64,000 nucleotides of DNA from Planctomycetota bacterium (GTDB taxonomy: Bacteria; Planctomycetota; B15-G4; SIAN01), in the NCBI GenBank assembly GCA_031409275.1, contig JANNXA010000033.1, forward strand, positions 96,001 through 160,000, given 5' to 3'. The notes beneath the pieces were generated by a model. It saw nothing but the letters and a program-made list of their open reading frames with translations. It searched no databases and was not told where the DNA came from. The translations under genes were made by a program, and so were the position numbers. Below are positions 32,724-47,876 of the stretch, one piece after another (positions within the stretch are counted from its first letter, which is position 1; each line of letters starts with the position of its first letter).

Positions 32724-32837
32724 CGTTCGCTCCTCGCCGCTCGTTGCCACCGCAGCCGCCAACGCAGGACGACCGGTACCATACCGCCCCCTTGAGCCGG
32801 CGATTTCAGCGCCGGAGTGTCGCACGGAGTCGCATGG

Positions 32838-35156
32838 ATGAGACGACCACTCCCCTTCGCCTTCGCGGTGGCCGGCAGCCTCCTGATCGTCCCCTCCCGC
32901 GGCGTGCCGCGACCGGAGGAGTACGGCTTCAGCGGCCTGATCAACTCGCGCCTGAACGACGGGCTGTTCAAGCTGATCGCCGCCGACGTCGACAGCGACG
33001 GCGACACCGACCTCGCGGTCATCAACAACTCGAAAGCGCGTCTCGATTTCCTGCTGCAGCGTCAACCCGGCGAGCCGCTCGGCGACTCGGCGTCGACGGA
33101 GGCAGGCGACCGGACCAATGACTTCGCCGACGAGGTCCACTTCCGCCGCGACTTCTTCGCCACCGAGCAGAAGGTCAGCGCGCTGGCCATCGCCGACCTG
33201 AACGGCGACGGCAAGAACGACCTCGCCTTCGTGGGCGACTCCGGCAAGCTCACGGTCGCCTACCGCGATGCCAAAGGCGGCTTCGGCGAGCGCGTGCGCC
33301 TCGACCTCGATGAGCTGTCGAACGTCGCGCAGGCGGTGCGCTGCGGCGACATCGACGGTGACGGGCGCAACGACGTGCTGGTGCTCGGCCGCCGCCGCAC
33401 GCAGCTCTTCCTGCAGGGCAGCGATGGTCGGCTGGTCGAGGCGCCGGAACTGCTGAACTCGACTTCGTCGCCCGACGGCTTCGCGCTCGCCGACCTCGAC
33501 GGCGACTCCCGCGGCGACCTCCTCTACGTGAAGGCGGATGCCGACGCGCCGCTGCGTTTCCGCCTCAATCGCGGCGGCGGCGAGTTCGGCCCCGAGCGCC
33601 TCTTCCCGTTCACGGAACTGCGCAGCTACGCCGTCACCGACCTCGACTTCGACGGGCGCACCGACCTCGCGGTCGTGCGACGCCGCAGCGGCCGCGTGGC
33701 GCTGCTCGAGTACGCCGGTGCCGGAGCCGTCGCGCGTGCCGGCGAGATCGTCCTTTCGTCGCCTCGTCTCGTGGCCTACTCGACGCAGAAGGACGAGAAG
33801 CCGCGCGACGAGCTGCTCGCCGACCTCGATGGTGATGGCAAGGTCGAACTGCTGGTCTGCGAACCGTCGGCGGCGCGCGTGGTCCGCCATGGCAGCGATC
33901 CCGATGGTCTCGCGAGCCGTGGCGAAGCGTTCGCGAGCCTGGTGGGTGCCCGCCATCCGCGGCTCGCCGATCTCGATGGCGACGGCCGCTTCGAACTGCT
34001 GGTGGCGGCGCCGGAGGAGGGGGCGATCGGCATCGCCAAGATCGGCGCCGACGGCCGTCCCGGCTTCCCCGAGCCGCTCGGCTACAAGGCCGACCAGCTC
34101 CTCGCGCTCGACGCCGCCGACCTCGACGGCAGCGGCAAGTCGAGCGTGGTCGCGTTGCTCGCCACCGGCAAGGGCGCGACGAAGAGCTACGCGCTCGCGC
34201 GCGTCGCCGCTGGCGAGCCCTTCTCGGTCGAGCTGAAGAAGCTGCCGACCGACCCGAGCGACCTGTGGCTGATCGACCTGAATCGCGACGGGCTGCGCGA
34301 TGCGTACATCACGGTGCCGACCGAAGTGCCGCGCATCCTGCTGGCCGGCAAGGGCAGCGACGGGAAGCTCGCCTTCACGCCGGTCGAGACGCAGGACGTT
34401 CCCGGCCTCGGGTTGCTGAAGGGAGTCGCCCGCACGGCGCTCTTCCATGGCGATGTCGATGGCGACGGCACGCTCGAGCTTCTGGTGCCCGGCCCCAACT
34501 TCGCGCGCGCCTTCACGCTGGGCGCGAAGGGGGTCCCGCAGGTGGTCGCGCAGTGGAACCTCGAGGAGGCATCCGCCAAGGTCGGCTGCGTCGCGGCCGG
34601 CGACCTCGACGGCGACGGCAAGCCGGAGATCCTGGTGCACGACCGCACCAGCCGCACGCTGCGCGCGCTGCGCATGGTCGACGGCGCGGCGCGCACGATC
34701 GCGCGCGTCGAGACGGCCGACCTCGAACCCAAGGGGCTGCGCGTCGCCGACCTCGACGGTGACGGCGCGCGCGACGTCGTGCTGTTGGGCGCCGAGCGCT
34801 TCGCGGTGGTCCAATCGGGCCGCGCCGACCCGGGCTTCGTCGAGACCGACGACTACGAGTGCCCGCTGAAGAACGCGTTCCTCGACCAGCTCGCGTTCGG
34901 CGACCTCAACTCGGACGGCATCGTCGATGCGGTGATCACCGACTCGAGCAAGCACCTGATCACCATCGCGGCCCACGTCGAAGGCAAGCTGCACCACGTG
35001 TTGCAGTTCCCGATCTACTCCGAGAGCATCTTCGAGCGAGACGGAGGCGGCGGCCGCGAGCCGCGCGAAATCGTCATCGCCGATTTCACGGGCGACCAGA
35101 AGGCCGACCTCGCGCTGCTGGTCCACGACCGCATCCTCGTCTATCCGCAGGAGTGA
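32838..35156 (+). CDS. Large FG-GAP/VCBS repeat protein
   Basis: About 13 DLDGDG..DL repeats, signal peptide, C-terminus ADFTGDQKADLALLVHDRILVYPQE. Confidence 0.88.
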   Translation: MRRPLPFAFAVAGSLLIVPSRGVPRPEEYGFSGLINSRLNDGLFKLIAADVDSDGDTDLAVINNSKARLDFLLQRQPGEPLGDSASTEAGDRTNDFADEVHFRRDFFATEQKVSALAIADLNGDGKNDLAFVGDSGKLTVAYRDAKGGFGERVRLDLDELSNVAQAVRCGDIDGDGRNDVLVLGRRRTQLFLQGSDGRLVEAPELLNSTSSPDGFALADLDGDSRGDLLYVKADADAPLRFRLNRGGGEFGPERLFPFTELRSYAVTDLDFDGRTDLAVVRRRSGRVALLEYAGAGAVARAGEIVLSSPRLVAYSTQKDEKPRDELLADLDGDGKVELLVCEPSAARVVRHGSDPDGLASRGEAFASLVGARHPRLADLDGDGRFELLVAAPEEGAIGIAKIGADGRPGFPEPLGYKADQLLALDAADLDGSGKSSVVALLATGKGATKSYALARVAAGEPFSVELKKLPTDPSDLWLIDLNRDGLRDAYITVPTEVPRILLAGKGSDGKLAFTPVETQDVPGLGLLKGVARTALFHGDVDGDGTLELLVPGPNFARAFTLGAKGVPQVVAQWNLEEASAKVGCVAAGDLDGDGKPEILVHDRTSRTLRALRMVDGAARTIARVETADLEPKGLRVADLDGDGARDVVLLGAERFAVVQSGRADPGFVETDDYECPLKNAFLDQLAFGDLNSDGIVDAVITDSSKHLITIAAHVEGKLHHVLQFPIYSESIFERDGGGGREPREIVIADFTGDQKADLALLVHDRILVYPQE

Positions 35157-35161
35157 TTCCG

Positions 35162-37057
35162 ATGCCGCGTCCTTGGTTGATCGCCGCGTTGCCGTCCGCC
35201 TTGGCCCTGGTTCCGCAGGAGGCGCCGGCGCCCGCCGCTCCGGTCCGCGCGCCCGGCTACGAGACGATCTGCGCCGCCGACACGATGCTCTTCCTCGGCA
35301 TCGACCACCTCGATGACCTGCTCGCCGATTGGCGCGCTTCTGCGTACGGACGCATGCTCGCCGACGAGGGCGCGGCGCCGGTGCGCGCCAGCTTCGAAGC
35401 GATGCTCGCGGCGATGGCCGACGACTCGCGCGGCGAGTTCGGCGTCGACGTCGTCGACATGGTCCGCAAGATCGACGGGCGGCTCGGCTTCGCGGTCGCC
35501 GGCGACGTGATGGCCGATGCCCATGACGGCCACGGCATCGCCGCCTTCGAGTCGACCGAGCACGCCGACGAGCTGCGCGCGCTGATGGCGACGGCGCTGC
35601 AGAAGATGGTCGAGGCGGGCGAAGCGGTGGTGAAGCACGAGATGCTCGGCGAGCACGAGCTGATGCAGATCACGCCGCTGGGCGAGGGCGATCAGGGGCG
35701 CTTCCAGATGGCGCAGGCGGGCGGCACGCTCGCGCTCGGAACGGCGGTCGGCAAGGCGCTGGAGCGCGAGGACTTCGCGCGCTTCGTGCAGACGCTCGAT
35801 GGGCAAGGCGGCGAGACGCTCGCGGCGCAGCCGAGCTTCCGCGATTCGCTCGCCGCACGCAGCGGCGGGGTGAAGCTCTTCTTCGACACCGGCCGCCAGA
35901 TCCGCGCCGGCATGTCACCGCCACTCGAGGACGGCAGCGAAGCGCCTGATGCGCGACTGCAACGAGTGCTGGGGCTCGATCGGTTTGGCGCGCTCAGCTC
36001 CCACTTCACGATGAACGCGGAAGGGATGCACGCGCTGCTCCATCAGGCATGGGGCCAAGGCGGCATCGCGGCGGTGCTGCAGGCGCTGCTGGTCGGCGGA
36101 GATCACGGCCTCTTCAAGCTGCTGCCGGCCGATGCCGCGATGGCGGTCGGGTCGCAGTTCGACCTCAAGGCGGGCCTCGACGCGGCGGATCAGCTGGCGA
36201 AGGAAGCGGGAATGGGCCCGCTCTTCGGCGCTCCGCCGGCGGAAGGGAACTCGCCGGAGACGACGGCGGCTCCCGACGAGTTCCAGCCGCGCCGTGACCT
36301 GCTCGACCACCTCGACGGCCGCATCGCCTTCACTGCGGTGCCGACCGCGCCGGAGGAGTCGTTCATGATGAGCGGCCTGCAGGGCGGAGCGTCCGTCAAC
36401 TACGCGATGCTGCTCGGTACCCGGAACAGCGCAGCACTCGGCGCCTCGATCGACAAGTTGCTGCGCAGCCAGGGAATGCACGCCGCGCGCCGCAAGAGCG
36501 AGTTCGAGGGCTTCCTGATCTACACGCTGCCGCTCGGGATCACGACGATCCACTACACGATCGTCGATGACGCGATGATCACCTCGCCGTCACTCTCGAT
36601 CCTGCAGGACATCCTGCGCCGCCGCTCGAATGCGGAGCTCGCGAACCTCCACGCTTCAACCCTCTTCGCCCGGCAGCGGGAAGGGCTCGAGGGCTCGCCC
36701 GGTCTCCTGCTTTGGGTCGCGAACTCCCCGGAGCTCTTCGATTCCATGACGGGCGTCGCCGAACGGCAGGTGGAGAGCGGTGGCGGCTACTACGACGACG
36801 GGTCCGGCGACGACAACGGCAGCAACGACAGTGGCTACGACAGCGGCTACGACGAGGGCGAGTCGCGGCAGCCCGCGTCGGAAGGCGACGAGCCAGCGGC
36901 AGCGCCCGAGGATCCGGTGCAGCAGCGGGCGAAGGCGTTCCTCGAGGCGTTCAGTGCGCTCGACAATGCGCTGCTGAAGAAGCACCTGCCGGGCGGCTCG
37001 GTGATGGCGATGCGCTTCGATGCGGGCGGCGCCTGGCTCGAACTCGTTTCTCGCTGA
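35162..37057 (+). CDS. Secreted hypothetical protein (DUF3352-like)
   Basis: Starts 5 nt after the VCBS gene, has a signal peptide and alpha/beta pattern, and carries an acidic Gly/Asp/Tyr insert near the C-terminus. The family assignment is tentative. Confidence 0.65.
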   Translation: MPRPWLIAALPSALALVPQEAPAPAAPVRAPGYETICAADTMLFLGIDHLDDLLADWRASAYGRMLADEGAAPVRASFEAMLAAMADDSRGEFGVDVVDMVRKIDGRLGFAVAGDVMADAHDGHGIAAFESTEHADELRALMATALQKMVEAGEAVVKHEMLGEHELMQITPLGEGDQGRFQMAQAGGTLALGTAVGKALEREDFARFVQTLDGQGGETLAAQPSFRDSLAARSGGVKLFFDTGRQIRAGMSPPLEDGSEAPDARLQRVLGLDRFGALSSHFTMNAEGMHALLHQAWGQGGIAAVLQALLVGGDHGLFKLLPADAAMAVGSQFDLKAGLDAADQLAKEAGMGPLFGAPPAEGNSPETTAAPDEFQPRRDLLDHLDGRIAFTAVPTAPEESFMMSGLQGGASVNYAMLLGTRNSAALGASIDKLLRSQGMHAARRKSEFEGFLIYTLPLGITTIHYTIVDDAMITSPSLSILQDILRRRSNAELANLHASTLFARQREGLEGSPGLLLWVANSPELFDSMTGVAERQVESGGGYYDDGSGDDNGSNDSGYDSGYDEGESRQPASEGDEPAAAPEDPVQQRAKAFLEAFSALDNALLKKHLPGGSVMAMRFDAGGAWLELVSR

Positions 37058-37072
37058 GCGCGCGCGCAGCCG

Positions 37073-38503
37073 TCAGCGAATCGCGACGGCGGCGTCGGAC
37101 TCGGCGGGTGGGGCCGGGAACGCGACGCCCGCCGCACGCAGCAGCGCGAACGGCGGCGTGCCGCCCGCGAAGATGAAGACGTGCTGGTTGTCGAGCGTGA
37201 CGGCGCGCGTGGAGTCTTGCTCGCGCACGGTGAGCGTGACCGCGTCACTGCCGATCACCGTCACCTCGCTGCGGAAGTAGACGGTGACCCGCCCGCCGAC
37301 CAGTCCGCTGTTGTTCCCGCTGGCATTCCCGCTGGCCTGCGCGGCCGCGATGCGTTCCTCGTTGCGCCGCTTGAGCCGGAAGAACGACTCCTTGCGGTAG
37401 CTGAGCGTCACTCGGTTGCCAGGTTGGCCAGCGAGCGCCAGCGCCGCCTCGACCGCGCTGTCACCGCCGCCCACCACGAGCACGTCGACGCCGCGGTAGA
37501 GCGCGGCATCGAGCAGGCGGTAGGCGACCTTGGTCTGCTCCTCGCCGGGGACTCCGAGCTTGCGTGGCGTGCCGCGCCGACCAAGCGCGAGCACCACCGA
37601 ACGGGCTCGCACCTCCGCGCGTTCGCCAGCCTCGCCGGTCTCGCTTTCGCCGGTGCGACGGGTGGTCACGACGAACGCGTCGCCGTCACGCAAGATCGAC
37701 TCGACGCACGTCTGCGCGCGTACGCGCAACGGGAAGCGGCGCGCGGCGTCCTCGAACAGCGAGACGAGCTCTTCCTTCAGGTACTCGTTCTTGGCCAGGC
37801 AACCGATCAGCGGCAGCTCGACCGGTTGCGTCATGACCAGCTTCTGGCGCGGATAGTGCAGCAGCGTGCCGCCCAACGCGTCCTGCTCGATCAGGACGTG
37901 GGAGAGCTCGAGCTCGATGGAACGCAGCGCGGCAGCAAGCCCCGCCGGCCCGGCGCCGACGATGGCGACATCGACCGTCTCGGCGTCACGTCGGTGGGAC
38001 GGCGCACGGTCGCGGCGCCGCGCGATCTCGTCGACCGCGGTGGTGGCCTGCCCGATGGCATGCCGGATGAGCGCGATGCCCGAGAGTTCGCCGGCGATGA
38101 AGAGGCCCGGCACGCTCGATTCCTGGACGGCGGAGAGCAGCGGCAGATCCTCGCGCAGCGCCAGCGCACCGAGTCCGACGTGGATCGCGCCGACCGGACA
38201 GGCCGTTTCGCAGCGACCGTGACCGACGCAGCGCGCGCCATGGACGACTCGCGCGACGCCGTCCAGCACCGCCAGCACCCCCTCTTCGGGGCACGCCTTC
38301 ACGCACAGCCCGCAGCCGACGCACTGCAGCGCGGCGATCTGCGGATGCTGTGCCGTCGGTTCGGCGGAGCCGCGCGCGCGCGCTTCGTCGAGCTCGGCAC
38401 GCGCCGACGCCTCGCGCTGGCGTGCCGCGCGCCGCTCGATCCAGGCCAGCGCGAGCAGCAGCGGCACGAGGGCGGCGCAGAATCCGAGGAGCGGCAGCAG
38501 CAT
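37073..38503 (-). CDS. Membrane-anchored 4Fe-4S dicluster + FAD/NAD(P)H oxidoreductase (TrxB/FNR-like)
   Basis: N-terminal TM helix, CVGCGLCVKACP and CVGHGRCETACP, FAD motif VGAGPAG, NAD(P) motif VGGGDSAVE with SYRK, no CxxC active site. Confidence 0.88.
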   Translation of the reverse strand: MLLPLLGFCAALVPLLLALAWIERRAARQREASARAELDEARARGSAEPTAQHPQIAALQCVGCGLCVKACPEEGVLAVLDGVARVVHGARCVGHGRCETACPVGAIHVGLGALALREDLPLLSAVQESSVPGLFIAGELSGIALIRHAIGQATTAVDEIARRRDRAPSHRRDAETVDVAIVGAGPAGLAAALRSIELELSHVLIEQDALGGTLLHYPRQKLVMTQPVELPLIGCLAKNEYLKEELVSLFEDAARRFPLRVRAQTCVESILRDGDAFVVTTRRTGESETGEAGERAEVRARSVVLALGRRGTPRKLGVPGEEQTKVAYRLLDAALYRGVDVLVVGGGDSAVEAALALAGQPGNRVTLSYRKESFFRLKRRNEERIAAAQASGNASGNNSGLVGGRVTVYFRSEVTVIGSDAVTLTVREQDSTRAVTLDNQHVFIFAGGTPPFALLRAAGVAFPAPPAESDAAVAIR

Positions 38504-38544
38504 GAAGTCTCAGTCTCGCAAAGAGGTGCTGGAACGTGCGTCGC

Positions 38545-40206
38545 TCAAAAGCGCCAGGTGAGCCCGAGGTCGAGCGACAGCGTGTCGATCGAGTCGCCGA
38601 GGCTCTTGGCGACGCGCGTCCACAACAGCGACTTCGCGCCGAGCTGCTGCGTCAGGAACAACGACGCCGTATGGCTGAAGTACGCGTCGCCGCCGTCGAT
38701 CTCGAGCGTGGTCGCGTCGTAGCCAAGCCGCAACGAAGTGGCTGCGGTCGGAGTCCAGGTGAGACCTCCGCTGCCGCCGAAGCCCGACTGATCGAGGCCG
38801 ACGAGGTTGAACAGGGCGAGATCGCCGCCGATCGTCTCCCAGCCAAACAGCTTCGAATCGCGGGAGCGCAAGGTGACCTGCAGAGCGCTTGGAGTGCCGT
38901 CGCCCATCACTTCGGCGACCTCCTGCTCGAGCGCGAGACCGGACTTCCATGTCTCGACGGCGGCAAGGGCCGCGCGCGTGCGACCACGCCCATACAGAGC
39001 GTCGTCGGCAGCGATCTGGCGCAGCGAATCGGTGTCGGGGTTCTCGTAGTGCGACCAGGTGGCGCGCAGGCCGAAGGGTTCGCTTGCTTGCCAGAAACCG
39101 CTGGCGTGCAGCCGCGTGAGACCGGCGCCCGAGCGGCGCGCCTCGTTGCCGTCGTAGACGTCGACCTGCGCGGAGGTGCGCAGCCAGTGGCCGCCTCTGA
39201 AGTTGGCGCTGACTTCGCCAAGCAGCGCGTGCTGATCGGCACTTCCTTGGAACCAGCTCGCCATGGCGCCGCCGGTCGCGGCGAGGCGCGAGCCGCCGCT
39301 GCCGCGATGCTCGAGCGCGCCCCAGCCCGCGAGGACGAGCTCATCGCTGCGCGGCGCAAGCTCGTCGCGATCGGGACGGAAGCCGAGCAAGGCACCGACG
39401 CGCGCGCCGTCGCCGACGACCTTCTCGGCATAGCTGCCGTCGATGCGGCCGATGCCGGGCAGCGCCTGCGGGAGGAAGCGGCCGATGCCGAGGACGCTGC
39501 CGTCCTCGAAATGGCGGCGCAACACCAACGTGTCGGCGCGCAGCCGCCACTCGTCCTGCTTGGGATCGCCGTCGTAGCCATCCCCGCTGCGCCGATTCAC
39601 GTCGAAGCGGAACTGCAGTGACCACGGATCGCCGCCGAGGCGCTCGACATCGCCGCTGGCGAAGAGGCGCAGGTTGGCGTAGTCGCGACCGTTCTCCGCG
39701 TCGTGCAGCCATCCGCTGGTGAGGCCGGTGGTGCCGTGGAAGAAGTTGCCGCGCGTCGTCGTTCCCGCCGCGACGGAGGGCGCCAGCAACGGCCGGAACG
39801 GCGCGTTCGGGTCGGTGCGTTCGCCGGTCGCTGGCGCGCGCGGGGTCGTCTCGCTCGGCGGTGCCAGGCCGCGCAGCACGGCGCGATCGCCGGCCTTCAC
39901 GACCACTCCCGGCTCGGTCGACACGAACGCCGCGAAGCACGACGTCGCGCTGACGTGCCGCACTTCGAACTCGGCGAGCACGCGACCGTCGCGCTCGATG
40001 CTCCCGCGCGTGCCAGCGACGACGCCAGCATCGCTGCCTGCCCCGAGATAGACGCCGTCGGCGGCGACCTGGGTGACCGTTGCTTCAACGTCACGAGCGA
40101 CGTCGCGCGCGCTGCGATGGGCGACCTCCTGAGCCGCCGCGTTGCCGGCCGCGGCCGAGCCGAGCAGCGCGAGGAGCGTCGCCGCGATGCGGTGTGCCGC
40201 GTTCAT
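38545..40206 (-). CDS. Outer-membrane beta-barrel protein with N-terminal soluble domain
   Basis: Signal peptide, alternating amphipathic strands, C-terminal LDLGLTWRF (BAM-type terminal Phe), ATGA overlap with the upstream cytochrome. Confidence 0.75.
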   Translation of the reverse strand: MNAAHRIAATLLALLGSAAAGNAAAQEVAHRSARDVARDVEATVTQVAADGVYLGAGSDAGVVAGTRGSIERDGRVLAEFEVRHVSATSCFAAFVSTEPGVVVKAGDRAVLRGLAPPSETTPRAPATGERTDPNAPFRPLLAPSVAAGTTTRGNFFHGTTGLTSGWLHDAENGRDYANLRLFASGDVERLGGDPWSLQFRFDVNRRSGDGYDGDPKQDEWRLRADTLVLRRHFEDGSVLGIGRFLPQALPGIGRIDGSYAEKVVGDGARVGALLGFRPDRDELAPRSDELVLAGWGALEHRGSGGSRLAATGGAMASWFQGSADQHALLGEVSANFRGGHWLRTSAQVDVYDGNEARRSGAGLTRLHASGFWQASEPFGLRATWSHYENPDTDSLRQIAADDALYGRGRTRAALAAVETWKSGLALEQEVAEVMGDGTPSALQVTLRSRDSKLFGWETIGGDLALFNLVGLDQSGFGGSGGLTWTPTAATSLRLGYDATTLEIDGGDAYFSHTASLFLTQQLGAKSLLWTRVAKSLGDSIDTLSLDLGLTWRF

Positions 40207-41498
40207 TCGCGGCCATCCGGATGGCAGGAGAAGCACGCCGGGCTGCTCCAGCTGTAGCCGTTCACCCCTTGATGTTCGGAGTCCATCTTCGACTTGCGGT
40301 GCTCGTGGCAGTCGATGCAGGAGAACGCGGGGTAGTTGCCGGTCGTGTGGCAGTCGGCGCAACCGAGCCCACCGTGATTTCCGCTGAGGGGGAAGGAGTC
40401 GTGGTCGAACCTGCCATCGCCCCAAGTGGCCGGCGTGTGGCACTGCTCGCAGTTGGTGCCGAATCCGGCGGCGGCGTGGTCGGGGTTCTGCGTTCCGGCG
40501 TAGTCGTCGGCGTGACAGCTGTAGCAGTCGCGCGGCGTTCCGGCGTAGATGCCGTTCCCGTGGCATGCGCTGCACGCGAGCGACGCGTGCTGACCCTGCA
40601 GCGGGAAGGTGGTGTGGAGGAAGCCGCCCGCGCCCCAGCCGATGGGCGTGTGGCACTGCTCGCAGCTCGTTCCAAAGCCACTCGACGAGTGCGGCGGGTT
40701 CTGGGTGCCGGCGTAGTCGTTGACATGGCAGCTGTAGCAGTCGCGCGGCGTGCCGGCGAACACGCCACCCACGTGGCAGTCGGAACAGTCGACCGAGCGA
40801 TGCTGGCCGAGCAGCGCGAAGGTGGTGTGGTTGAAGTGCGCCGCGTTCCATGCGGTGGCCGAGTGGCAGCGCTGGCAGTCGTCGCGATAGCCGAGCGCGA
40901 GGTGGTCGGGACTGGTCGCGCGCGCGAGATCGTCCTGATGGCACGCGGCGCACTCGAGCGGCGCGCCGACGAAGCGGCCGACGCGCGACTGTTCATGGCA
41001 GCGATCGCAGGCGGCGGCGAGGTGAGCACCCGCCAGCGGGAAGCGCGTCTTCGCATGCTCGGCGATCAGGCCGGTTGGCTGCCATTGCTGCTGCGAGTGG
41101 CATTGCGTGCAGTCGTTGCCGAGCGTGCTGTCGTGCGGGTCAAGGTGGCAGCCACCGCAGCCGCGCACCGCGAACTCGCGCACCGGGCCGCGGTCGTTGT
41201 GGCAGCGCAGGCAGCTGGCGGTCGCGTGCGCTCCTTCGAGCGCGAGGCCCGTTTGCGCGGCGTGGTCGAAGGTGAAGTCGCTCTTCAGCACGTCCCAGCG
41301 TTCTGGCAGGTGGCAGAGCGAGCAGTCGGTCGGAAAGGTGCGATGGGGGACGAGCGGGCCGAAGCGCCCCTCGTCCCAGCTCTGCCTTGGCGCCGAGGTG
41401 AGTGCGTAGCACGCCGCCAGCAGCGAGACGCCGGCGAGCGCGAGGAGGGCGCGGCGTCGCGCAGCACGCAACGGGTCAGCGTCCGGTGTGGCAGTCAC
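40203..41498 (-). CDS. 16-heme c-type cytochrome, probable lipoprotein
   Basis: 16 CxxCH counted. N-terminus RRRALLALAGVSLLAAC resembles a lipobox. There is no ATG; candidate starts are TTG 41507, GTG 41498 and TTG 41471. Confidence 0.9.
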   Translation of the reverse strand: MTATPDADPLRAARRRALLALAGVSLLAACYALTSAPRQSWDEGRFGPLVPHRTFPTDCSLCHLPERWDVLKSDFTFDHAAQTGLALEGAHATASCLRCHNDRGPVREFAVRGCGGCHLDPHDSTLGNDCTQCHSQQQWQPTGLIAEHAKTRFPLAGAHLAAACDRCHEQSRVGRFVGAPLECAACHQDDLARATSPDHLALGYRDDCQRCHSATAWNAAHFNHTTFALLGQHRSVDCSDCHVGGVFAGTPRDCYSCHVNDYAGTQNPPHSSSGFGTSCEQCHTPIGWGAGGFLHTTFPLQGQHASLACSACHGNGIYAGTPRDCYSCHADDYAGTQNPDHAAAGFGTNCEQCHTPATWGDGRFDHDSFPLSGNHGGLGCADCHTTGNYPAFSCIDCHEHRKSKMDSEHQGVNGYSWSSPACFSCHPDGRE

Positions 41499-43380
41499 GA
41501 CATTCAACTCCGAGCGGAACGTAGTGGATCATCACGCGATCATCGGAGCGTCCACCCGCGACCTTCACCGGCGAATGGCAGGCCGAGCACGCGAGCCGCG
41601 CGTGCACGCCATCGAGCGCGAATCGCGAGTCGCGTTGGTGGTCGAACGTCACCGGAAGCCACCGCTCGTCGGACTGGTGGCAACGGTTGCAATCGTCGCC
41701 CTTGCGCGTGAGCTGGCCTCCGTGCGGATCGGCGTGGCAGCTCTTGCAATCGCGCGGCGTGCCGGCGAATGCCCGAACCGCGGTGTCGTTCGCGCGGTGG
41801 CAATCGTTGCACGCGACGGCGAGGTGCGCACCGGTGAGCGCTGGTTGATGGCGCTGCGCGGTGAAGGTCGATGGCGCGAAATGACGCTCGTCGTGGCAGC
41901 TCGCGCAGCCCCCCGGCCGCGTGCGGAACTGCCCGCCGTGCACGTCGACGTGGCATTGGTCGCAAGCCGTTGGCGTCGCGCGGAAGCGCACGGGCGCACC
42001 CGGTTCGGGTGCACGATGGCACCCATCGCACCCCACGTTGGCATGGGCGCCGAGAAGCTCGGGATGGCGCGCCGCGAAGTCGAAGCGCGACGGCGTGAAG
42101 CGCGACTCGTCGTGGCACGCCTCGCACCCGTCGCCGCGCGCGGCGAACTGGCCACCATGCGGATCGACGTGGCACGCGCTGCAGGTGGTGGGGGTGGCGA
42201 CGAAACGCGCCGGAGCACCTGGTGTCGGCGGCTGATGGCATCGTTCGCAGGCCGCGTCCGCGTGACGAGCGCGCAACGGCGGCGCGTGCGCCGCCGCGGT
42301 GATTCGCGACGGAACGAAGTGGGTCGCGTGGCACTCCGCGCAATCGGATTCACGGGCGCCGAACTGGCCACCGTGCGGCGACTCGTGGCAGGTAGTGCAA
42401 TCGGACGACGCACGTCCGGGGAATCGCTTCGCGAACGGAACCGCCGGATCGTGGCAGGCGCGGCACTCGCGATCGGCATGCGGCGGCGTCAGCGCGAATC
42501 CGAGTTTCGCATGCTCGTCCACGGTGACGCGAGCCGACGCGGCGGCGAAGACGAGGTCGCTCGCATCGTGGCAGGTGGTGCAGCGACCGGCTGGCAGCGC
42601 GCGGTGCGGCGTCGCATGGCACTGCTCGCACGTCGTGCCTCGCACCACGGCGAAGTCGAGTGGGGCGCTGCGCACCATCGTCGCGTCGATCACCGTCGCC
42701 GCCGGTACGACCGCGGATGGATGGCACTTCGCGCAGCTCACCTGCGCGTGAGCTCCAAGCAGGGGAAAGTGCTGCGCATGCTCGAACGCCGCGGCCGGCT
42801 TGAAGCTCTCCTGCCCATGGCAAGCGCCGCAGTCATTGCTCATCGCGTCGCCGTGCGGGTCGTCGTGGCAGCTCGCGCACGCCTGCGTGAGCCCGAGGTA
42901 GGTGCGTCGCGTCGAAGCGATCGCGAGGCGATCAGCGGTCCCGTCGGGCAGCATCGCGACGTGACAGCGCGCGCAGTCGAGCGGCTGGTGGGCGCCGGTC
43001 AGCTTGAAGTCGAGGTGGCGGTGGGCATTCGCCGACGCGGATCCCTCGCCCCAGGAGTGCTCATGGACCAGCGGGAAGTCGGCACCCCAGTGCTCGCCGT
43101 GGCATCCGCCGCAATCGAGCGGCCGCTCGGCGGCGAGTGAGCCGTGCCAACCGGTGCCGCTCGACAACTGCGCGGCGATCTCGGCGTGGCAGGAGGTGCA
43201 GCCATCGACCGCGCCGACGTGCGCGTGGCATCGTTCGCAACCGTCGAGTCCATGCAACTCGGGCAAGGCAGCGTGAACCGCGGAGAGATCGCCGGGGCTA
43301 GGCGCCACGCGGGCGAGGTTGATGGCCAGCGCAAGGACGGTGAGGCCAAGGAGCGTGAAGACGATGGCACGCGCGCTCAT
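41476..43380 (-). CDS. 23-heme c-type cytochrome
   Basis: 23 CxxCH counted, N-terminal signal/anchor followed by SPGDLSAVHA, GAGGTGG RBS and ATGA overlap with the upstream gene. Confidence 0.92.
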   Translation of the reverse strand: MSARAIVFTLLGLTVLALAINLARVAPSPGDLSAVHAALPELHGLDGCERCHAHVGAVDGCTSCHAEIAAQLSSGTGWHGSLAAERPLDCGGCHGEHWGADFPLVHEHSWGEGSASANAHRHLDFKLTGAHQPLDCARCHVAMLPDGTADRLAIASTRRTYLGLTQACASCHDDPHGDAMSNDCGACHGQESFKPAAAFEHAQHFPLLGAHAQVSCAKCHPSAVVPAATVIDATMVRSAPLDFAVVRGTTCEQCHATPHRALPAGRCTTCHDASDLVFAAASARVTVDEHAKLGFALTPPHADRECRACHDPAVPFAKRFPGRASSDCTTCHESPHGGQFGARESDCAECHATHFVPSRITAAAHAPPLRARHADAACERCHQPPTPGAPARFVATPTTCSACHVDPHGGQFAARGDGCEACHDESRFTPSRFDFAARHPELLGAHANVGCDGCHRAPEPGAPVRFRATPTACDQCHVDVHGGQFRTRPGGCASCHDERHFAPSTFTAQRHQPALTGAHLAVACNDCHRANDTAVRAFAGTPRDCKSCHADPHGGQLTRKGDDCNRCHQSDERWLPVTFDHQRDSRFALDGVHARLACSACHSPVKVAGGRSDDRVMIHYVPLGVECRDCHTGR

Positions 43381-44333
43381 CGCCACCACCTCGAGAAGTC
43401 GAGCGAGCCCCAGCGCACCGCGAGTGCGATGTGGCAGATCGCCGTCCCCACCATCACCAGAGCCAGCCAGCGGTGGAGGAAGCGCCACGAAGCCATCAGG
43501 GCCGAGAGGTCACGCAGGCGCGCCAGTCGCTGCGCCTCGCGCAGGATCGTGGCCAGCAGCGGCTCGATGCGGCGCCGCACGGCCGGGTCGGGTGACCGTT
43601 CACGCAACAGCTCGCGGTAGCGCGCATGGGCGGCGCGCGCGTTCGCGTCGCCGAAGAGGACGCCGAAGAGCGCGCGCAGGCGCGACGGCGAGCCCTGCGT
43701 CTCCGCCGGAAGCAGCTCGAGCGGCGGCAGACCGAGACCCGTGAGCTGGGTACGAAGCTGCGTGAAGCGGGAATGGGCCTCGTCCAGCGAAAGCTCGCGC
43801 CCCTCGCGCGTGCGGGGCAGCTGGGCGAGGACGTAGCGGCCGATGATGCCGGTCGCGAGCACCACGCCGAGCGCCACGCTCGCGACCGTGGCGGAGGCGC
43901 TGCGCAGGTGACCGGCCGCGTGCACCAGCACGCAGCCTCCCGCGAGTAGCCCCGATACGACATGGAGGTCCATCCAGCCGCGCAGGCCGCCGAGCCGCGT
44001 GCTGGCGACGAGGCGTCGACGCACGAGGTAGGCGAGGTTGATCCCCATCAGTGCGACCGCGGCGACTCCAAGCGCGAGGCCGACGTCGCCGCTCGATCGC
44101 AGGCGCGGGTGGCGCGGATCGAGGGCTTGTGCGGTCAGGGGCGCCGTGTAGTAGCTGCATTCCGTGCACAGGAGTTGCACGAGGAAGCCGATGCCCGCCA
44201 GCAGTGCCAGCGGCGCCCACCAGGCGGTGCGCAGTCGATTCGCTGGATCGTTCTGCTGGATCACCGGGTCACGAACTCCGCCGCGCCGTCCAGGAAGTGG
44301 AATGGGCGTCGGACGGACGGACGCCGCGTTCAC
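43377..44333 (-). CDS. Inner-membrane protein, ferric-reductase-like/cytochrome b transmembrane domain
   Basis: About 5 TM helices with two His pairs spaced 14 residues apart (WMDLHVVSGLLAGGCVLVH; WRFLHRWLALVMVGTAICH). Start uncertain. Confidence 0.75.
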   Translation of the reverse strand: MNAASVRPTPIPLPGRRGGVRDPVIQQNDPANRLRTAWWAPLALLAGIGFLVQLLCTECSYYTAPLTAQALDPRHPRLRSSGDVGLALGVAAVALMGINLAYLVRRRLVASTRLGGLRGWMDLHVVSGLLAGGCVLVHAAGHLRSASATVASVALGVVLATGIIGRYVLAQLPRTREGRELSLDEAHSRFTQLRTQLTGLGLPPLELLPAETQGSPSRLRALFGVLFGDANARAAHARYRELLRERSPDPAVRRRIEPLLATILREAQRLARLRDLSALMASWRFLHRWLALVMVGTAICHIALAVRWGSLDFSRWWR

Positions 44334-44396
44334 CCCCGATCATCGATCGATGGCGAACGCGCGCCGATCAACGCAGTCGGCGTACCAACCGCTCGG

Positions 44397-47300
44397 TCAG
44401 CGGCCGGGGGTGAACTCGCGCAGGCGCAGCTGGCGCAGTTCGACGCGACTGCCATCGCCGAGCACGAATCCGAACGTCCCGTTGCGGCGACCGTCGTGGT
44501 CCTCCGTGTCGACCGTGACGGAACCATTCAGCTGGACGGTCAGGCGCGGGCCGACGGCGGTGACGAGGAAGTGGTTCCAGCCGGTGCGATCCGGCAACGG
44601 CCACCAGATCTCTTCGCGCGGTTGCACGAGGACGCCGCGACCCTCGGGCTCGGTCAGGCGGCCCCAGGCCGAACCTCCGGCATAGGTGGCGTAGGAGAGC
44701 GGCGCGCGCGAGTCGACTCCGTCACGGAGCGGCTCGGCCTGGCGGAACAGGAATCCGAGCGATTGGGTCGGAGATCCAAGTCGCGCCTCGAACTCGAACG
44801 CGAAGTCGCCGACCGTCGGCGCTAGCCCCGTCCAGCCGTTGACGTCGTTGTCGGCGGCGACGAGCACTCCGTCGACCAGGCTCCATCCTTGCGGCACCTG
44901 TGGCGCGATTCCGTCGAGGAAGGGCCGCCAGCTCGGCTGTGCCGCCGCCGGCTCGATCGTCGGCGCCAGCAGCCACGCGGCGAGATCGCTGATCTGCTCC
45001 AACGAAAGGGCATCCGCGAGCCCTTCGGGCATGATCGACTTGGTGGCCGGCTTGCGCTTCTCGATCTGCGCGGCGAGCACCTCGACCTGCTTGCCGGTCG
45101 CATCGACCAGCACGACCCGTTTGTCGTCGGCGATCAACGGCAGGCCCGAGATCACGTCTCCGTTCTTGAGGAAGACGTTCTCGCCGCGGTACTGATCGGA
45201 GATCGTGCGCGAGGGCGTGACCATCGACTCGAGCAGGTCGCGGGCGCCGAAACGCGAACCGATGGTGGTGAGATCGGGGCCCACCGCGACGCCGAAGTCG
45301 CCGCGCTTGTGGCACTTGGCGCAGAGCTGCTGGTAGAGCAGCGCGCCGTCAGGCGGCGAGCGGTGCGGGGCGTGCAACGTGCGCTCGACGAAAGTGAGGA
45401 CGCGATCGAACTCGCGCGGCTCCGCGGCGGAGGCGGGCGCGGCCGGTGCCGACGCCGCCGCCTTGATCCGCTCGGCCGCCTCCTGATCGAGCGCCGTCCG
45501 CTCGCTGTCACTGAGTCCGACGTCCGCATCGTCGCGGATGTTGGTCAGGTAACCGACGTAGCTCATGCCGCCGGAGTTGGCGCGGATCGCCTCATCGAGC
45601 CAACGGTGCAGTTCGACGCGCGCGCCTGCGGGCCACCCCTCCTTCACGCAGCGCAGCGCATCGGCGTAGAGGATCTTCTGCTCGCGCGACGGCTCGAGGA
45701 CGAAGGTGCGCCACAGCAGTTCGGCCGCGCCTTTCGGGGCGGCATTCGCGATCAGCTGGGCCCAGTCGCGATTCGCGGCCGGATCGACGCATGGGAAGCC
45801 GGTGAGGAGTTGCTCGCCGGCGAACTTGGCGTCAGGCGCGGCGATCCGCCAGAGCTGCAGCGCGCGCAGCACGGCGTGACGGAGCTCGCGCGGCGATTCG
45901 CTGTCGAGCGAGCCCAGCAGCACGACGCCGAGCTGCAGCACGACGGCGGCATCGGTGTCGTCGACCGGCGCGCGTCCGACCAGCCGCATGCGCGCCAGCG
46001 CGATCATGCTCTCGGCCTGCGCCATGGGCGACTTCGCCGCGGCGAGGGTCGCGGCCACTTCGCCGGCGGGTCGCCGCTCGAGTTCGCGCGCGGCGAGGAA
46101 GCGCCGGAAGCGGTCGGGCGAGGCGAGTTCGGTCGCAAGCGCGGCGACGGGTGCGCTGTGCAGTTTCTGAGCCAGGCTGGTGGCGGTGTCGCGGTCGGCA
46201 GCGGGAGCGACGGCCGGGGTCGCGGCAACGGGCAGCTCGCTCGCCGCAGGATCGACGCAACGCAGACGGTGGACGCCGCCGACCGTGCCACGACCGCCGA
46301 CCGCGAAGAGGAGCGAACCATCCGCGTCCATCGCGAGGTCGGTGACATTCAGCGGGTGACCGCGCAGGAGGACATCCGTGCTGGCGGTGTAGCTCACGCC
46401 GCGCGGCGTCGCGCGGAAGGCGTAGATCACTCCCAGCGACCAGTCTCCGGCGAGAAGAGCGCCCTGGAAGCGTCGCGGAAACTGCGTGCCCGTGACCAGG
46501 CACATGCCCGTCGGCGAACCGCGACCCGCTTCGACCGCGGGCGGCAACGAATCGGCGGCCACGTTCGGCCACACGCTCGAACCGGTCCTCCAGCCGTATT
46601 CACCGCCCGGCACGACGTGGACGATGCGGACCGGTCGGTACCACGGCAGCCCGACGTCCCACTCCATGTCGGAGTCGAAGGTGAAGAGCTCGCCACGCGC
46701 GTCGAACGCGAGGTCGTAGTGGTTGCGGAAGCCGGCGGCGAAGAGTTCGCAGCGGCCGCTCTCCGGTTCGACGCGAAGGATGATGCCGCCGGGTGCCTTG
46801 CACTCGGTGGCGTGGCCACGCGGATCGAGATAGGTCGGCAGCAGATGCCCTTCGTAGGTGATCGAGTAGGGCGATCCCGCCGCGGGTGGCTGGCCGAGGC
46901 GCGCGTGGTTGCCGACGGCGATGTAGAGCGCGCCGTCGGGGCCGGGCACGATCGCATGCGGGCCGTGCTCGCCGAGGTCGCCATCGAGAGCGACGACCTT
47001 GATCGGCGCGGTCGCACCTTCGGGGAGGCGATAGAGGCCGTGGCCGTTGGGCCCGGCTCCGGTGAACCAGGTCGTGCCGTCCTGCCAGTACATCCCCTGG
47101 CAGCCTTGGATCGCGGCCGTGAACGGCGTGATCTCCTCGGCGCGTCCATCGCCATCGGCATCGACGAGCGAGAAGATCGGCCCGCCCTCGACGTTCGCCA
47201 GCAGTCGCCGCGGACCCGCGGTGGTCAGCGCGACGACGGAGCCGAAGCCGTCGGCGACCGTCTCGATCACGAAGCCGGGCAGCGGATCGAAGCTCGGAGC

Positions 47301-47876
47301 CGGCGGGGCGTGGAGTTCACCCCACGGAGCGGCGCCGTAGGGGGCGACGACGCGCGCGCGCGCCGCGTCGGCCGCCATCGGCGCGCTGGCGGTGTCGGGG
47401 TCATACGGACGGCAGAGCCACGCCTCGTCGGACACCACGACCGGGCGGGTGCCGTCGGCACAGCGGACCTCGACGGCCAGCAAGAAGCCGGCGGGACCGC
47501 CCTCGTTGGCGACGCGCGCGACGAACTCGTTGCGGCCGCGGCGCAGCAGCTCCGTGACGTCGAGCGTCGTCAAGCGCGACCAGTCGTCGCCACGTCCAGC
47601 GACGGTCCCATTCACGCTCAGCCGAAAGCGGTTGTCGCTCGAGACGGCGACCAGCGCGCGCGTCGGCTCGGAGCCGAGCTCGAACGTGCGCGTGAGGAGC
47701 CACTCGTCCTTGCCGTCCGCGGTGGCCTTTGCATCGCCCCAGATCCAGCGTGCTTGCGCGAGTGGTGCGTTCTGGCCGGTGAGTCGCGTTGCGACGCCGA
47801 GCAGCGCGAGTGCGGTCAGCACGTGGACGAAGGCGGCGTGGTGGCGTCGGGGCGAACGGTGGAGGTGCGTTTCCAT
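44397..47876 (-). CDS. PVC-type heme-binding membrane-bound dehydrogenase-like protein (sugar-binding domain + sorbosone-DH-like propeller + helical repeats + cytochrome c + DUF1080-like domain)
   Basis: EHGPHAIVPGPDG, GFRNHYDLAF, DSDMEWDVGLPWYRP, GRGSPTG, CAKCH...VGPDLT...SIMPEGL, C-terminal GWNHF...VQLNG. Confidence 0.88.
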   Translation of the reverse strand: METHLHRSPRRHHAAFVHVLTALALLGVATRLTGQNAPLAQARWIWGDAKATADGKDEWLLTRTFELGSEPTRALVAVSSDNRFRLSVNGTVAGRGDDWSRLTTLDVTELLRRGRNEFVARVANEGGPAGFLLAVEVRCADGTRPVVVSDEAWLCRPYDPDTASAPMAADAARARVVAPYGAAPWGELHAPPAPSFDPLPGFVIETVADGFGSVVALTTAGPRRLLANVEGGPIFSLVDADGDGRAEEITPFTAAIQGCQGMYWQDGTTWFTGAGPNGHGLYRLPEGATAPIKVVALDGDLGEHGPHAIVPGPDGALYIAVGNHARLGQPPAAGSPYSITYEGHLLPTYLDPRGHATECKAPGGIILRVEPESGRCELFAAGFRNHYDLAFDARGELFTFDSDMEWDVGLPWYRPVRIVHVVPGGEYGWRTGSSVWPNVAADSLPPAVEAGRGSPTGMCLVTGTQFPRRFQGALLAGDWSLGVIYAFRATPRGVSYTASTDVLLRGHPLNVTDLAMDADGSLLFAVGGRGTVGGVHRLRCVDPAASELPVAATPAVAPAADRDTATSLAQKLHSAPVAALATELASPDRFRRFLAARELERRPAGEVAATLAAAKSPMAQAESMIALARMRLVGRAPVDDTDAAVVLQLGVVLLGSLDSESPRELRHAVLRALQLWRIAAPDAKFAGEQLLTGFPCVDPAANRDWAQLIANAAPKGAAELLWRTFVLEPSREQKILYADALRCVKEGWPAGARVELHRWLDEAIRANSGGMSYVGYLTNIRDDADVGLSDSERTALDQEAAERIKAAASAPAAPASAAEPREFDRVLTFVERTLHAPHRSPPDGALLYQQLCAKCHKRGDFGVAVGPDLTTIGSRFGARDLLESMVTPSRTISDQYRGENVFLKNGDVISGLPLIADDKRVVLVDATGKQVEVLAAQIEKRKPATKSIMPEGLADALSLEQISDLAAWLLAPTIEPAAAQPSWRPFLDGIAPQVPQGWSLVDGVLVAADNDVNGWTGLAPTVGDFAFEFEARLGSPTQSLGFLFRQAEPLRDGVDSRAPLSYATYAGGSAWGRLTEPEGRGVLVQPREEIWWPLPDRTGWNHFLVTAVGPRLTVQLNGSVTVDTEDHDGRRNGTFGFVLGDGSRVELRQLRLREFTPGR

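Follow-up and report, generated by a model that had tools for sequence, protein, structure and literature searches.

How does a flavoprotein with the fold of a thioredoxin reductase (TrxR) come to be encoded at the end of a multiheme cytochrome gene cluster, and what might it do there? The question is raised by a 64,000-nucleotide stretch of DNA (referred to here as the window) from a Planctomycetota bacterium (GTDB lineage Bacteria; Planctomycetota; B15-G4; SIAN01; GenBank assembly GCA_031409275.1, contig JANNXA010000033.1, positions 96,001 to 160,000 of the forward strand). A gene on its minus strand (37073..38503) encodes a 476-residue protein, which an earlier note had taken for a permuted, disulfide-less module resembling ferredoxin:NADP(H) reductase (FNR). 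We analysed this protein using the open reading frame (ORF) list, Pfam and NCBIfam models, a structural model and profile alignments. By profile comparison, the flavoprotein is a circularly permuted TrxR-like fold in which the last ~50 residues have moved to the front, and it is without the catalytic CxxC. It is a real and widespread variant of a known fold, apparently unpublished, and is tied to the porin-cytochrome cluster PCC3, a known gene cluster of predicted function, through near-obligate pairing or fusion with the inner-membrane protein of that cluster, IMP. The function of the protein lies in a His-substituted iron-sulfur cluster and in this tie to a predicted heme membrane protein and multiheme gene cluster, both of which go beyond the earlier note.

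A circularly permuted TrxR-like fold

The order of motifs along the chain is unusual, as the earlier note had observed. The segment ESSVPGLFIAGELSG..LIRHAIGQA (residues 128-153) precedes the flavin adenine dinucleotide (FAD) motif DVAIVGAGPAG (residues 178-188), and the chain stops soon after HVFIFAGGTPP, which ends at residue 451 of 476. Family models cover the core only, with matches to positions 2-278 of 305 for Pyr_redox_3, 2-251 of 291 for Pyr_redox_2 and 1-261 of 316 for TIGR04018. An AlphaFold2 model was built from a 92-row alignment (mean pLDDT 92.8, pTM 0.88), and its nearest PDB structures were those of the bacillithiol disulfide reductase Bdr (YpdA). Core residues 175-465 align with residues 2-272 of the 324 in Bacillus cereus Bdr (7A76; Z 24.2, root-mean-square deviation 2.4, 266 residues, 29% identity). 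Because this alignment stops at residue 272, approximately 50 C-terminal residues of the fold are absent from the end of the chain.

A profile of residues 116-166 (38006..38158, minus strand) matches the missing C-terminus of both TrxB and an unpermuted sister family, which bears out the permuted order. Against a 24-row TrxB profile (24 of 30 fetched loci could be parsed), hhalign placed the segment on residues 262-297 (probability 75, E 2.5e-5, score 33.2), and the core on residues 5-248. The sister family, represented by a profile of 62 of the 81 representatives with the segment after the core, was matched at 273-317 of 323 (probability 99.0, E 5.6e-18, score 97.3, 40% identity), with the core at 1-266. 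Twenty column-shuffled controls reached maximum scores of 20.1 for the sister family and 18.8 for TrxB. In the structural model, the displaced element is a strand-turn-helix at pLDDT >90 (strand 134-136, helices 138-141 and 146-166), with the G-E-L motif between strand and helix.

The permutation is a profile-level result. As a single sequence, the displaced segment found no significant match in the PDB (best TrxR-fold E 1.9, beneath histone and GroEL noise), and sequential structural aligners left it unaligned. When the segment profile was run against the 36,430 six-frame ORFs of the genome, only three permuted paralogs were significant and the C-terminus of canonical TrxB was unlisted at E ≤10. 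A richer template profile was required. The missing single-sequence match and the unaligned segment would suit a reading in which there is no true permutation: the chain would be a TrxR-like fold cut short or a product of faulty assembly, and the resemblance of the N-terminal motif would be due to chance. This reading is almost certainly wrong, as the segment matches exactly the part of the sister family that is missing here, with the shuffled controls far below and a confidently modelled strand-turn-helix. Furthermore, the segment comes first in all 80 related GTDB loci (the best 80 of 591 confirmed loci, to which the related-locus counts below also refer), drawn from Planctomycetota, Acidobacteriota, Gemmatimonadota, Calditrichota, Ignavibacteriota, Bacteroidota, Pseudomonadota and others. 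The flavoprotein is matched by at least 8000 clusters at E 1e-30 or better, the best named among the matches listed being from Planctomycetota. Given these matches and the order kept in 80/80 loci, assembly artefact and truncation were ruled out. Thousands of these proteins are automatically named 'thioredoxin reductase' or 'NAD(P)-binding domain protein' yet match only part of the model, because they are permuted.

Active site and cofactor motifs

The protein starts with a predicted transmembrane (TM) anchor (residues 2-22; 38438..38500, minus strand; hydropathy 2.49 over residues 1-19), and the following 23 residues contain 7 Arg. A single helix in the model (residues 2-44) spans both the anchor and the Arg-rich stretch (to residue 44), the latter of which would lie on the cytoplasmic side. 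A ferredoxin-type dicluster domain follows (residues 50-110; 38174..38356, minus strand; Pfam Fer4_7), then the displaced element and finally the core FAD- and NAD(P)H-binding domains (residues 176-462; 37118..37978, minus strand), assigned from the alignment to Bdr 7A76 and motif conservation.

The dicluster domain carries the motifs CxxCxxCxxxC and CxxHxxCxxxC. All seven cluster Cys and His95 are conserved, the latter in 91 of 92 aligned relatives; over the 80 related loci, position 95 is His in 65, Tyr in 1, Ile in 1 and unparsed in 13. Because the second motif reads CxxHxxCxxxC with a near-invariant His95, one cluster is likely a 3Cys-1His or a 3Fe cluster. Overall, the motifs predict FAD and two [4Fe-4S] clusters as cofactors. 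In the core, the FAD motif GAGPAG occupies residues 183-188, the NAD(P)H motif GGGDSA residues 345-350, and both Arg370 and Arg376 of the basic motif SYRKxxxxR are invariant in 92/92 relatives. In the G-E-L motif of the displaced element, Glu139 (91/92) stands in place of the usual Asp, which is flavin-binding at the equivalent position. Published motifs for NADPH binding are GXGXXA and, for the 2'-phosphate, HRRXXXR (PMC8564101; this and the other papers below are cited from the accessible part of their text). The spacing of the basic motif differs from HRRXXXR, and a preference of the flavoprotein for NADPH appears probable from these residues.

The reported loss of the catalytic CxxC is confirmed. 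The stretch that aligns with TrxB CxxC-D in the profile alignment reads VAYRLLD (within KVAYRLLD, 37508..37531, minus strand), a pattern scan found CxxC in 0/80 related loci, and Val326 and Tyr328 at this site are invariant in 92/92 relatives. The flavoprotein shares with TrxB the GxGxxG and GxGxxA motifs and basic residues at the 2'-phosphate site. It also retains the terminal strand-GD-helix element, which here lies N-terminal to the core and carries Glu. However, the lack of a dithiol and the permuted order set the two apart, and identity with TrxB was rejected (no CxxC; TIGR01292 76.6 versus a cut-off of 343.45 bits). The window's genome has a separate canonical TrxB.

The description as an FNR-like module stands in part. 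One-electron chemistry of the FNR kind is plausible, yet among solved structures the closest relative is Bdr/YpdA and not a YumC-type FNR. TrxR-like FNRs (YumC/FNR1/FNR2), homodimers that act on ferredoxin or flavodoxin with NADP(H), have the same fold without CxxC (Z 17-18), and the conversion of hydride to single electrons is likely the same. They are nevertheless more distant than Bdr, and the iron-sulfur partner of the window's flavoprotein is fused and membrane-bound. A hallmark of these FNRs is a His, Val, Tyr or Phe that stacks on the flavin re-face, carried on the partner monomer's C-terminal subdomain (PMC10294844). No counterpart of this stacking tail was found: the former C-terminal helix enters the first strand of the core via a short linker (median 10.5 residues, range 4-34), and none of residues 150-177 is conserved at 90% in the 92-row alignment. 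Membership of the YumC-type FNRs was rejected for want of the tail.

The resemblance to Bdr/YpdA (7A76, 7A7B, 7APR; TIGR04018) is closer. Both are without CxxC and have a YP motif and a V-x-(H/Y) stretch at the former CxxC site, Bdr is the nearest solved fold, and the YpdA-like proteins are the sister group in the core-domain tree. By contrast, the window's flavoprotein is permuted, has a predicted TM anchor and a dicluster ferredoxin, and is tied to a heme membrane protein and multiheme cytochromes. It also has no equivalent of Cys14, a residue in the FAD-binding loop that is common to the Bdr of Bacillus subtilis, Bacillus cereus and Staphylococcus aureus, although not universal (PMC8945050). 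The equivalent position 187 is Ala in 80, Ser in 7, Gly in 3 and Thr in 2 of 92 relatives. Membership of Bdr/YpdA was rejected (TIGR04018 132.4 versus a cut-off of 339.9 bits, model positions 1-261 of 316, no Cys14).

This kinship raises the possibility of a Bdr-like task, with the protein serving as a membrane-tethered reductase of a small disulfide or other cytoplasmic substrate that is present in the operon for upkeep, and not as part of the wire. Bdr itself, a soluble tetramer acting on bacillithiol disulfide, manages without CxxC. Moreover, the genome (92.9% complete) contains a BshC-like gene (251.8 bits, cut-off 265.8) and no canonical YpdA was found in it, which leaves room for such a task and counts against the electron-transfer role proposed below. 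We nonetheless regard a Bdr-like task as very unlikely, given the low TIGR04018 score and the Ala, Ser, Gly or Thr at the Cys14 position in 92/92 relatives. Canonical-order YpdA-like genes occur alongside the permuted family in 6 of 36 genomes searched, and disulfide reduction needs neither two iron-sulfur clusters nor fusion to a heme membrane protein.

Pairing with the PCC3-type membrane protein

The flavoprotein gene is the last of five minus-strand genes, which in order encode IMP, a 23-heme cytochrome, a 16-heme cytochrome, a predicted porin and the flavoprotein. IMP (43377..44333, minus strand; start codon uncertain) has five predicted TM helices and two WX3HX13H motifs, predicted to bind two b-hemes. 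All four His are invariant in 69/69 rows, both motifs occur in 67 of 68 related IMP domains, and the fourth helix (TM4) contains TGIIG, in which both Gly are invariant. The predicted topology places one His pair at each membrane face and a large loop inside. The 23-CxxCH cytochrome c (41476..43380, minus strand) has a hydrophobic N-terminus, as judged by eye, and is predicted to be periplasmic. The second cytochrome c (40203..41507, minus strand; start codon uncertain) has 16 CxxCH motifs and a lipobox-like LLAAC. The predicted outer-membrane beta-barrel porin (38545..40206, minus strand; 553 residues) has, by eye, a signal-peptide-like N-terminus and a C-terminal Phe, and matched no Pfam or NCBIfam model. 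Two junctions in the cluster overlap by ATGA, and a gap of 41 bases precedes the flavoprotein gene. A scan of 36500-45000 for promoters and terminators found none.

The features of the IMP and the cytochromes correspond to PCC3, for which He, Barco, Emerson and Roden (2017, PMC5566968) describe a beta-barrel porin, a pair of large multiheme cytochromes, one periplasmic and the other extracellular, and an IMP of ~300 residues with five helices and two WX3HX13H motifs. The WX3HX13H signature is given there for PCC3 and PCC4, together with SGXXG on TM4, where the window's IMP has TGxxG. The published cytochromes have a median of 21 and 34 CxxCH motifs, compared with 23 and 16 in the window. In addition, the published form, itself a prediction, has four genes and a quinone link, whereas the window's cluster has five genes.

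IMP is present in 69/80 related loci, in 15 of them as a C-terminal fusion to the flavoprotein. Where at least 8 kb was available on both sides (n=43), we found IMP in 42 loci, a cytochrome of at least 10 hemes in 43, a porin homolog in 37, and all three in 36. As the 80 loci had been selected by score, 151 evenly drawn genomes of the phylum were also searched with both profiles. The same 26 of 151 genomes contained both the 39 copies of the full flavoprotein and the 38 strong matches to IMP (E 1e-50 or better). This count left out shorter segment-first and core-only rows of the flavoprotein, as well as 13 rows with a weak IMP. Partners lay within 6 kb of each other for 36/39 flavoprotein copies and 36/38 IMP copies, many of them fused. 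The three flavoprotein copies beyond 6 kb of an IMP begin within ~1.1 kb of a contig start. The window's genome holds a second such cluster (C28:21556-31152), encoding a flavoprotein-IMP fusion of ~725 residues, a 23-heme cytochrome, a porin-like protein, and 7-heme and 11-heme proteins. Pairing or fusion of the flavoprotein with IMP is thus near-obligate.

Of the genes that flank the cluster, the one directly upstream of IMP on the same strand (44397-47876, minus strand) encodes a 1159-residue protein that combines a 3-keto-disaccharide hydrolase domain with a cytochrome c motif. On the other side, genes for an FG-GAP repeat protein (779 residues) and for a protein without a Pfam match (32817-37057, plus strand) converge on the flavoprotein gene, from which they are separated by 15 bases with no terminator-like site.

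A proposed route from NADPH to the cell surface

On this basis, we lean slightly towards a role in which the flavoprotein would carry electrons from NADPH via FAD and two [4Fe-4S] clusters to the b-hemes of IMP and from there to the wire of cytochromes, acting as a valve for electron export. FAD would accept a hydride from NADPH in the cytoplasm, and single electrons would then pass via the two clusters to the inner and then the outer b-heme of IMP, in presumed contact with the flavoprotein. The two cytochromes, with 39 c-hemes between them (23 and 16), and the porin would take these electrons out to an extracellular acceptor. Outward transfer from NADPH is favoured by both redox potential and membrane potential, and spends the latter. 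The machine would therefore be a redox valve or surface reductase, as opposed to a coupling site.

It would resemble NADPH oxidases and ferric reductases (NOX/FRD), although the dehydrogenase of NOX has the plant-type FNR fold and lacks an iron-sulfur relay. The window's flavoprotein has a TrxR-like fold instead, its predicted acceptor is a cytochrome wire, and IMP is without a significant fold match. The logic is likely the same, with cytoplasmic NAD(P)H reducing FAD and electrons crossing two membrane b-hemes to the outside (e.g. SpNOX, PMC11564096), and the HX13H pattern is common to IMP and NOX/FRD according to He et al. (PMC5566968). In Sideroxydans ES-1, PCC3 is down-regulated on Fe(II) relative to thiosulfate (PMC8788666), so a role other than iron oxidation fits.

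A number of observations weigh against this export route. The structural model of IMP has no clear match, with none at E 0.001 or better. Its best Z was 8.9, to helical bundles, and the di-heme bundle of Escherichia coli superoxide oxidase tied at Z 8.4, within helical-bundle noise. The ferric-reductase Pfam model (PF01794), the membrane domain of NOX/FRD with four heme His, scored 20.5 bits, below the cut-off of 28. Within the window's cluster, the flavoprotein gene lies 4.9 kb from the IMP gene, at the opposite end. In seven of the 151 phylum genomes, IMP is matched only weakly (E 1e-20 to 1e-27) and a full flavoprotein of this type is missing. The 80 score-chosen loci favour close relatives, related genomes in the phylum sample are not independent, and 11-16 candidates were scored per genome. 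Finally, the proposal of He et al. was an exchange of electrons between IMP and quinones (PMC5566968).

The last point could be extended to the flavoprotein, so that together with IMP it would form an NAD(P)H:quinone module, and the multiheme wire would trade electrons with the quinone pool and not directly with NADPH. The pairing data fit this too, He et al. compared IMP to a quinone-active cytochrome b (PMC5566968), and IMP has a weak Pfam match to Ni_hydr_CYTB (22 bits, cut-off 30.1). On the other hand, a His pair at each membrane face and the operon coupling to cytochromes are explained without a quinone, and no quinone-site motif was identified in IMP, though none was searched for. We consider a quinone module unlikely.

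Flow in the opposite direction, in which an extracellular donor (mineral, electrode or partner cell) would reduce NAD(P)+ or ferredoxin via the flavoprotein, is more doubtful still. TrxR-like FNRs are reversible enzymes, which would permit it. However, inward flow to NADP+ opposes the membrane potential and would require a donor well below -320 mV, as estimated from standard values, and many of the carriers fall in groups that are not known to be lithotrophic. PCC3 was defined in iron oxidisers (PMC5566968) and is still listed as a candidate oxidase (10.1101/2025.02.27.639646, PMC9900912, PMC13386937), yet its response to Fe(II) in ES-1 runs the other way (PMC8788666), and the extracellular cytochrome of ES-1 PCC3 was undetected on any substrate tested, magnetite included, in the text available (PMC12016527).

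Returning to the export route, a broader proposal can be made, which we put forward tentatively and at somewhat less than even confidence. The large, undescribed permuted TrxR-fold clade would be the cytoplasmic NADPH plug of membrane electron-transfer modules, found in about one sixth of the sampled phylum genomes and in many phyla. With the PCC3 heme proteins it would form a continuous, quinone-independent wire from NADPH to the surface, NOX-like but with another flavoprotein fold and extending across the whole envelope. PCC3 would then be an electron-export valve and not an iron oxidase. As a candidate for extracellular electron transfer (EET), PCC3 is widely cited and usually counted as a quinone-linked iron oxidase, and a near-obligate, often fused NAD(P)H flavoprotein partner would give it a defined cytoplasmic end. 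Export as opposed to uptake, if true, changes the reading of PCC3 genes in metagenomes.

Full-text searches, with most subscription papers outside their coverage, yielded no description of a TrxR-like flavoprotein that is permuted, and none of a flavoprotein in PCC3. The words ferredoxin, flavo and thioredoxin are absent from the main text and text supplements of He et al. as accessible (PMC5566968). Their Table S6 does list unnamed 'other redox proteins' of 412-805 residues; these neighbour HX13H membrane proteins, and most of the clusters concerned have no porin (PMC5566968). The ~800-residue examples may, judged by length alone, be the unpermuted sister family. In the available text, other PCC3 papers give four genes or name no flavoprotein (10.1101/2025.02.27.639646, PMC9900912, PMC13386937), and a preprint on EET in peat does not mention one (10.64898/2026.05.27.727921). 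Likewise, the flavoprotein is undescribed in the accessible parts of papers on Melioribacter, Caldithrix, EET quinol oxidases and peat EET clusters, and nothing on it appears in those of PMC5492636, PMC5317091, PMC6295460 and PMC10950700.

Relatives and the origin of the permutation

Why, then, is the fold permuted? The earlier note had suggested a rearrangement that lets the ferredoxin sit next to the flavin. This is not supported by the relatives. A search with an unpermuted homolog (L117) yielded 150 representatives, of which 81 have the segment after the core, 19 before it, 46 no segment match, 3 another arrangement and 1 neither. No ferredoxin precedes the segment in 12 of the 19 permuted representatives, which start with the segment at residue 15-29, and the iron-sulfur domains of the unpermuted sister family are at the C-terminus. 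Ferredoxin placement was thus rejected as the cause of the permutation.

A search of 36 genomes found closer relatives that keep the canonical order. The unpermuted L117 and L118 proteins match Pyr_redox_3 up to position 305 of 305, followed by cNMP-binding and iron-sulfur domains. Genes of this sister family (L117:181-2580, L118:7910-13475) encode a flavoprotein with two cNMP-binding domains, an iron-sulfur domain and sometimes an FHA domain. The L118 gene adjoins a weak homolog of the PCC3-type IMP and a 10-heme cytochrome with an FHA domain, a neighbourhood that suggests a signal-regulated version of the flavoprotein-IMP module.

A second permuted architecture, that of the 12 representatives above, consists of segment, core, a Fer4_5-containing membrane region and a dicluster at the C-terminus. 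It also occurs in the window's genome (L003, C51:272125-275403) and its relatives (further examples L125 and L132-L136), and is common in the phylum sample. Just upstream of the C51 gene, and overlapping it, the window's genome encodes a 246-residue membrane protein.

Core-only trees were built from subsets of 36 and 50 rows, picked for spread. Both permuted types and the unpermuted family group together with support of 89/97 in one tree and 90/82 in the other, the YpdA-like proteins being sister and TrxB falling outside. The second permuted architecture is a single clade (99/93) in the 90/82 tree and split in the 89/97 tree. A single origin of the permutation was neither rejected (approximately unbiased test, p-AU 0.396) nor established (support 65/25). 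That the low-Mr TrxR fold occurs naturally in circularly permuted form, with both permuted and unpermuted sister families, makes it a clean case of fold rearrangement.

The main permuted forms have in common that the chain is opened at one loop and that partners are able to hang on both new ends. The permutation opens the chain at the loop that corresponds to Bdr ~268-276, so that the two new ends emerge from the same spot on the FAD domain. The new N-terminal end carries the iron-sulfur domain, while the new C-terminal end carries the membrane domain where the two proteins are fused. In all 15 fused loci, the heme membrane domain begins 17-25 residues past the core.

Other variants were noted among the relatives. 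Two proteins of 821-831 residues (P0223, P0237) carry seven CxxCH motifs in one chain with ferredoxin, segment and core, and possibly represent a direct heme-flavoprotein fusion. Truncated or fragmented flavoprotein copies, which may reflect sequencing error or decay, occur at L033:9959-11065, L037:9986-11838 and in L054. The window's own protein has two private low-complexity insertions, at 37292-37339 and 37622-37654 (minus strand; residues ~389-404 and 284-294), where the model pLDDT drops to 61 and 81, respectively; close relatives are without them.

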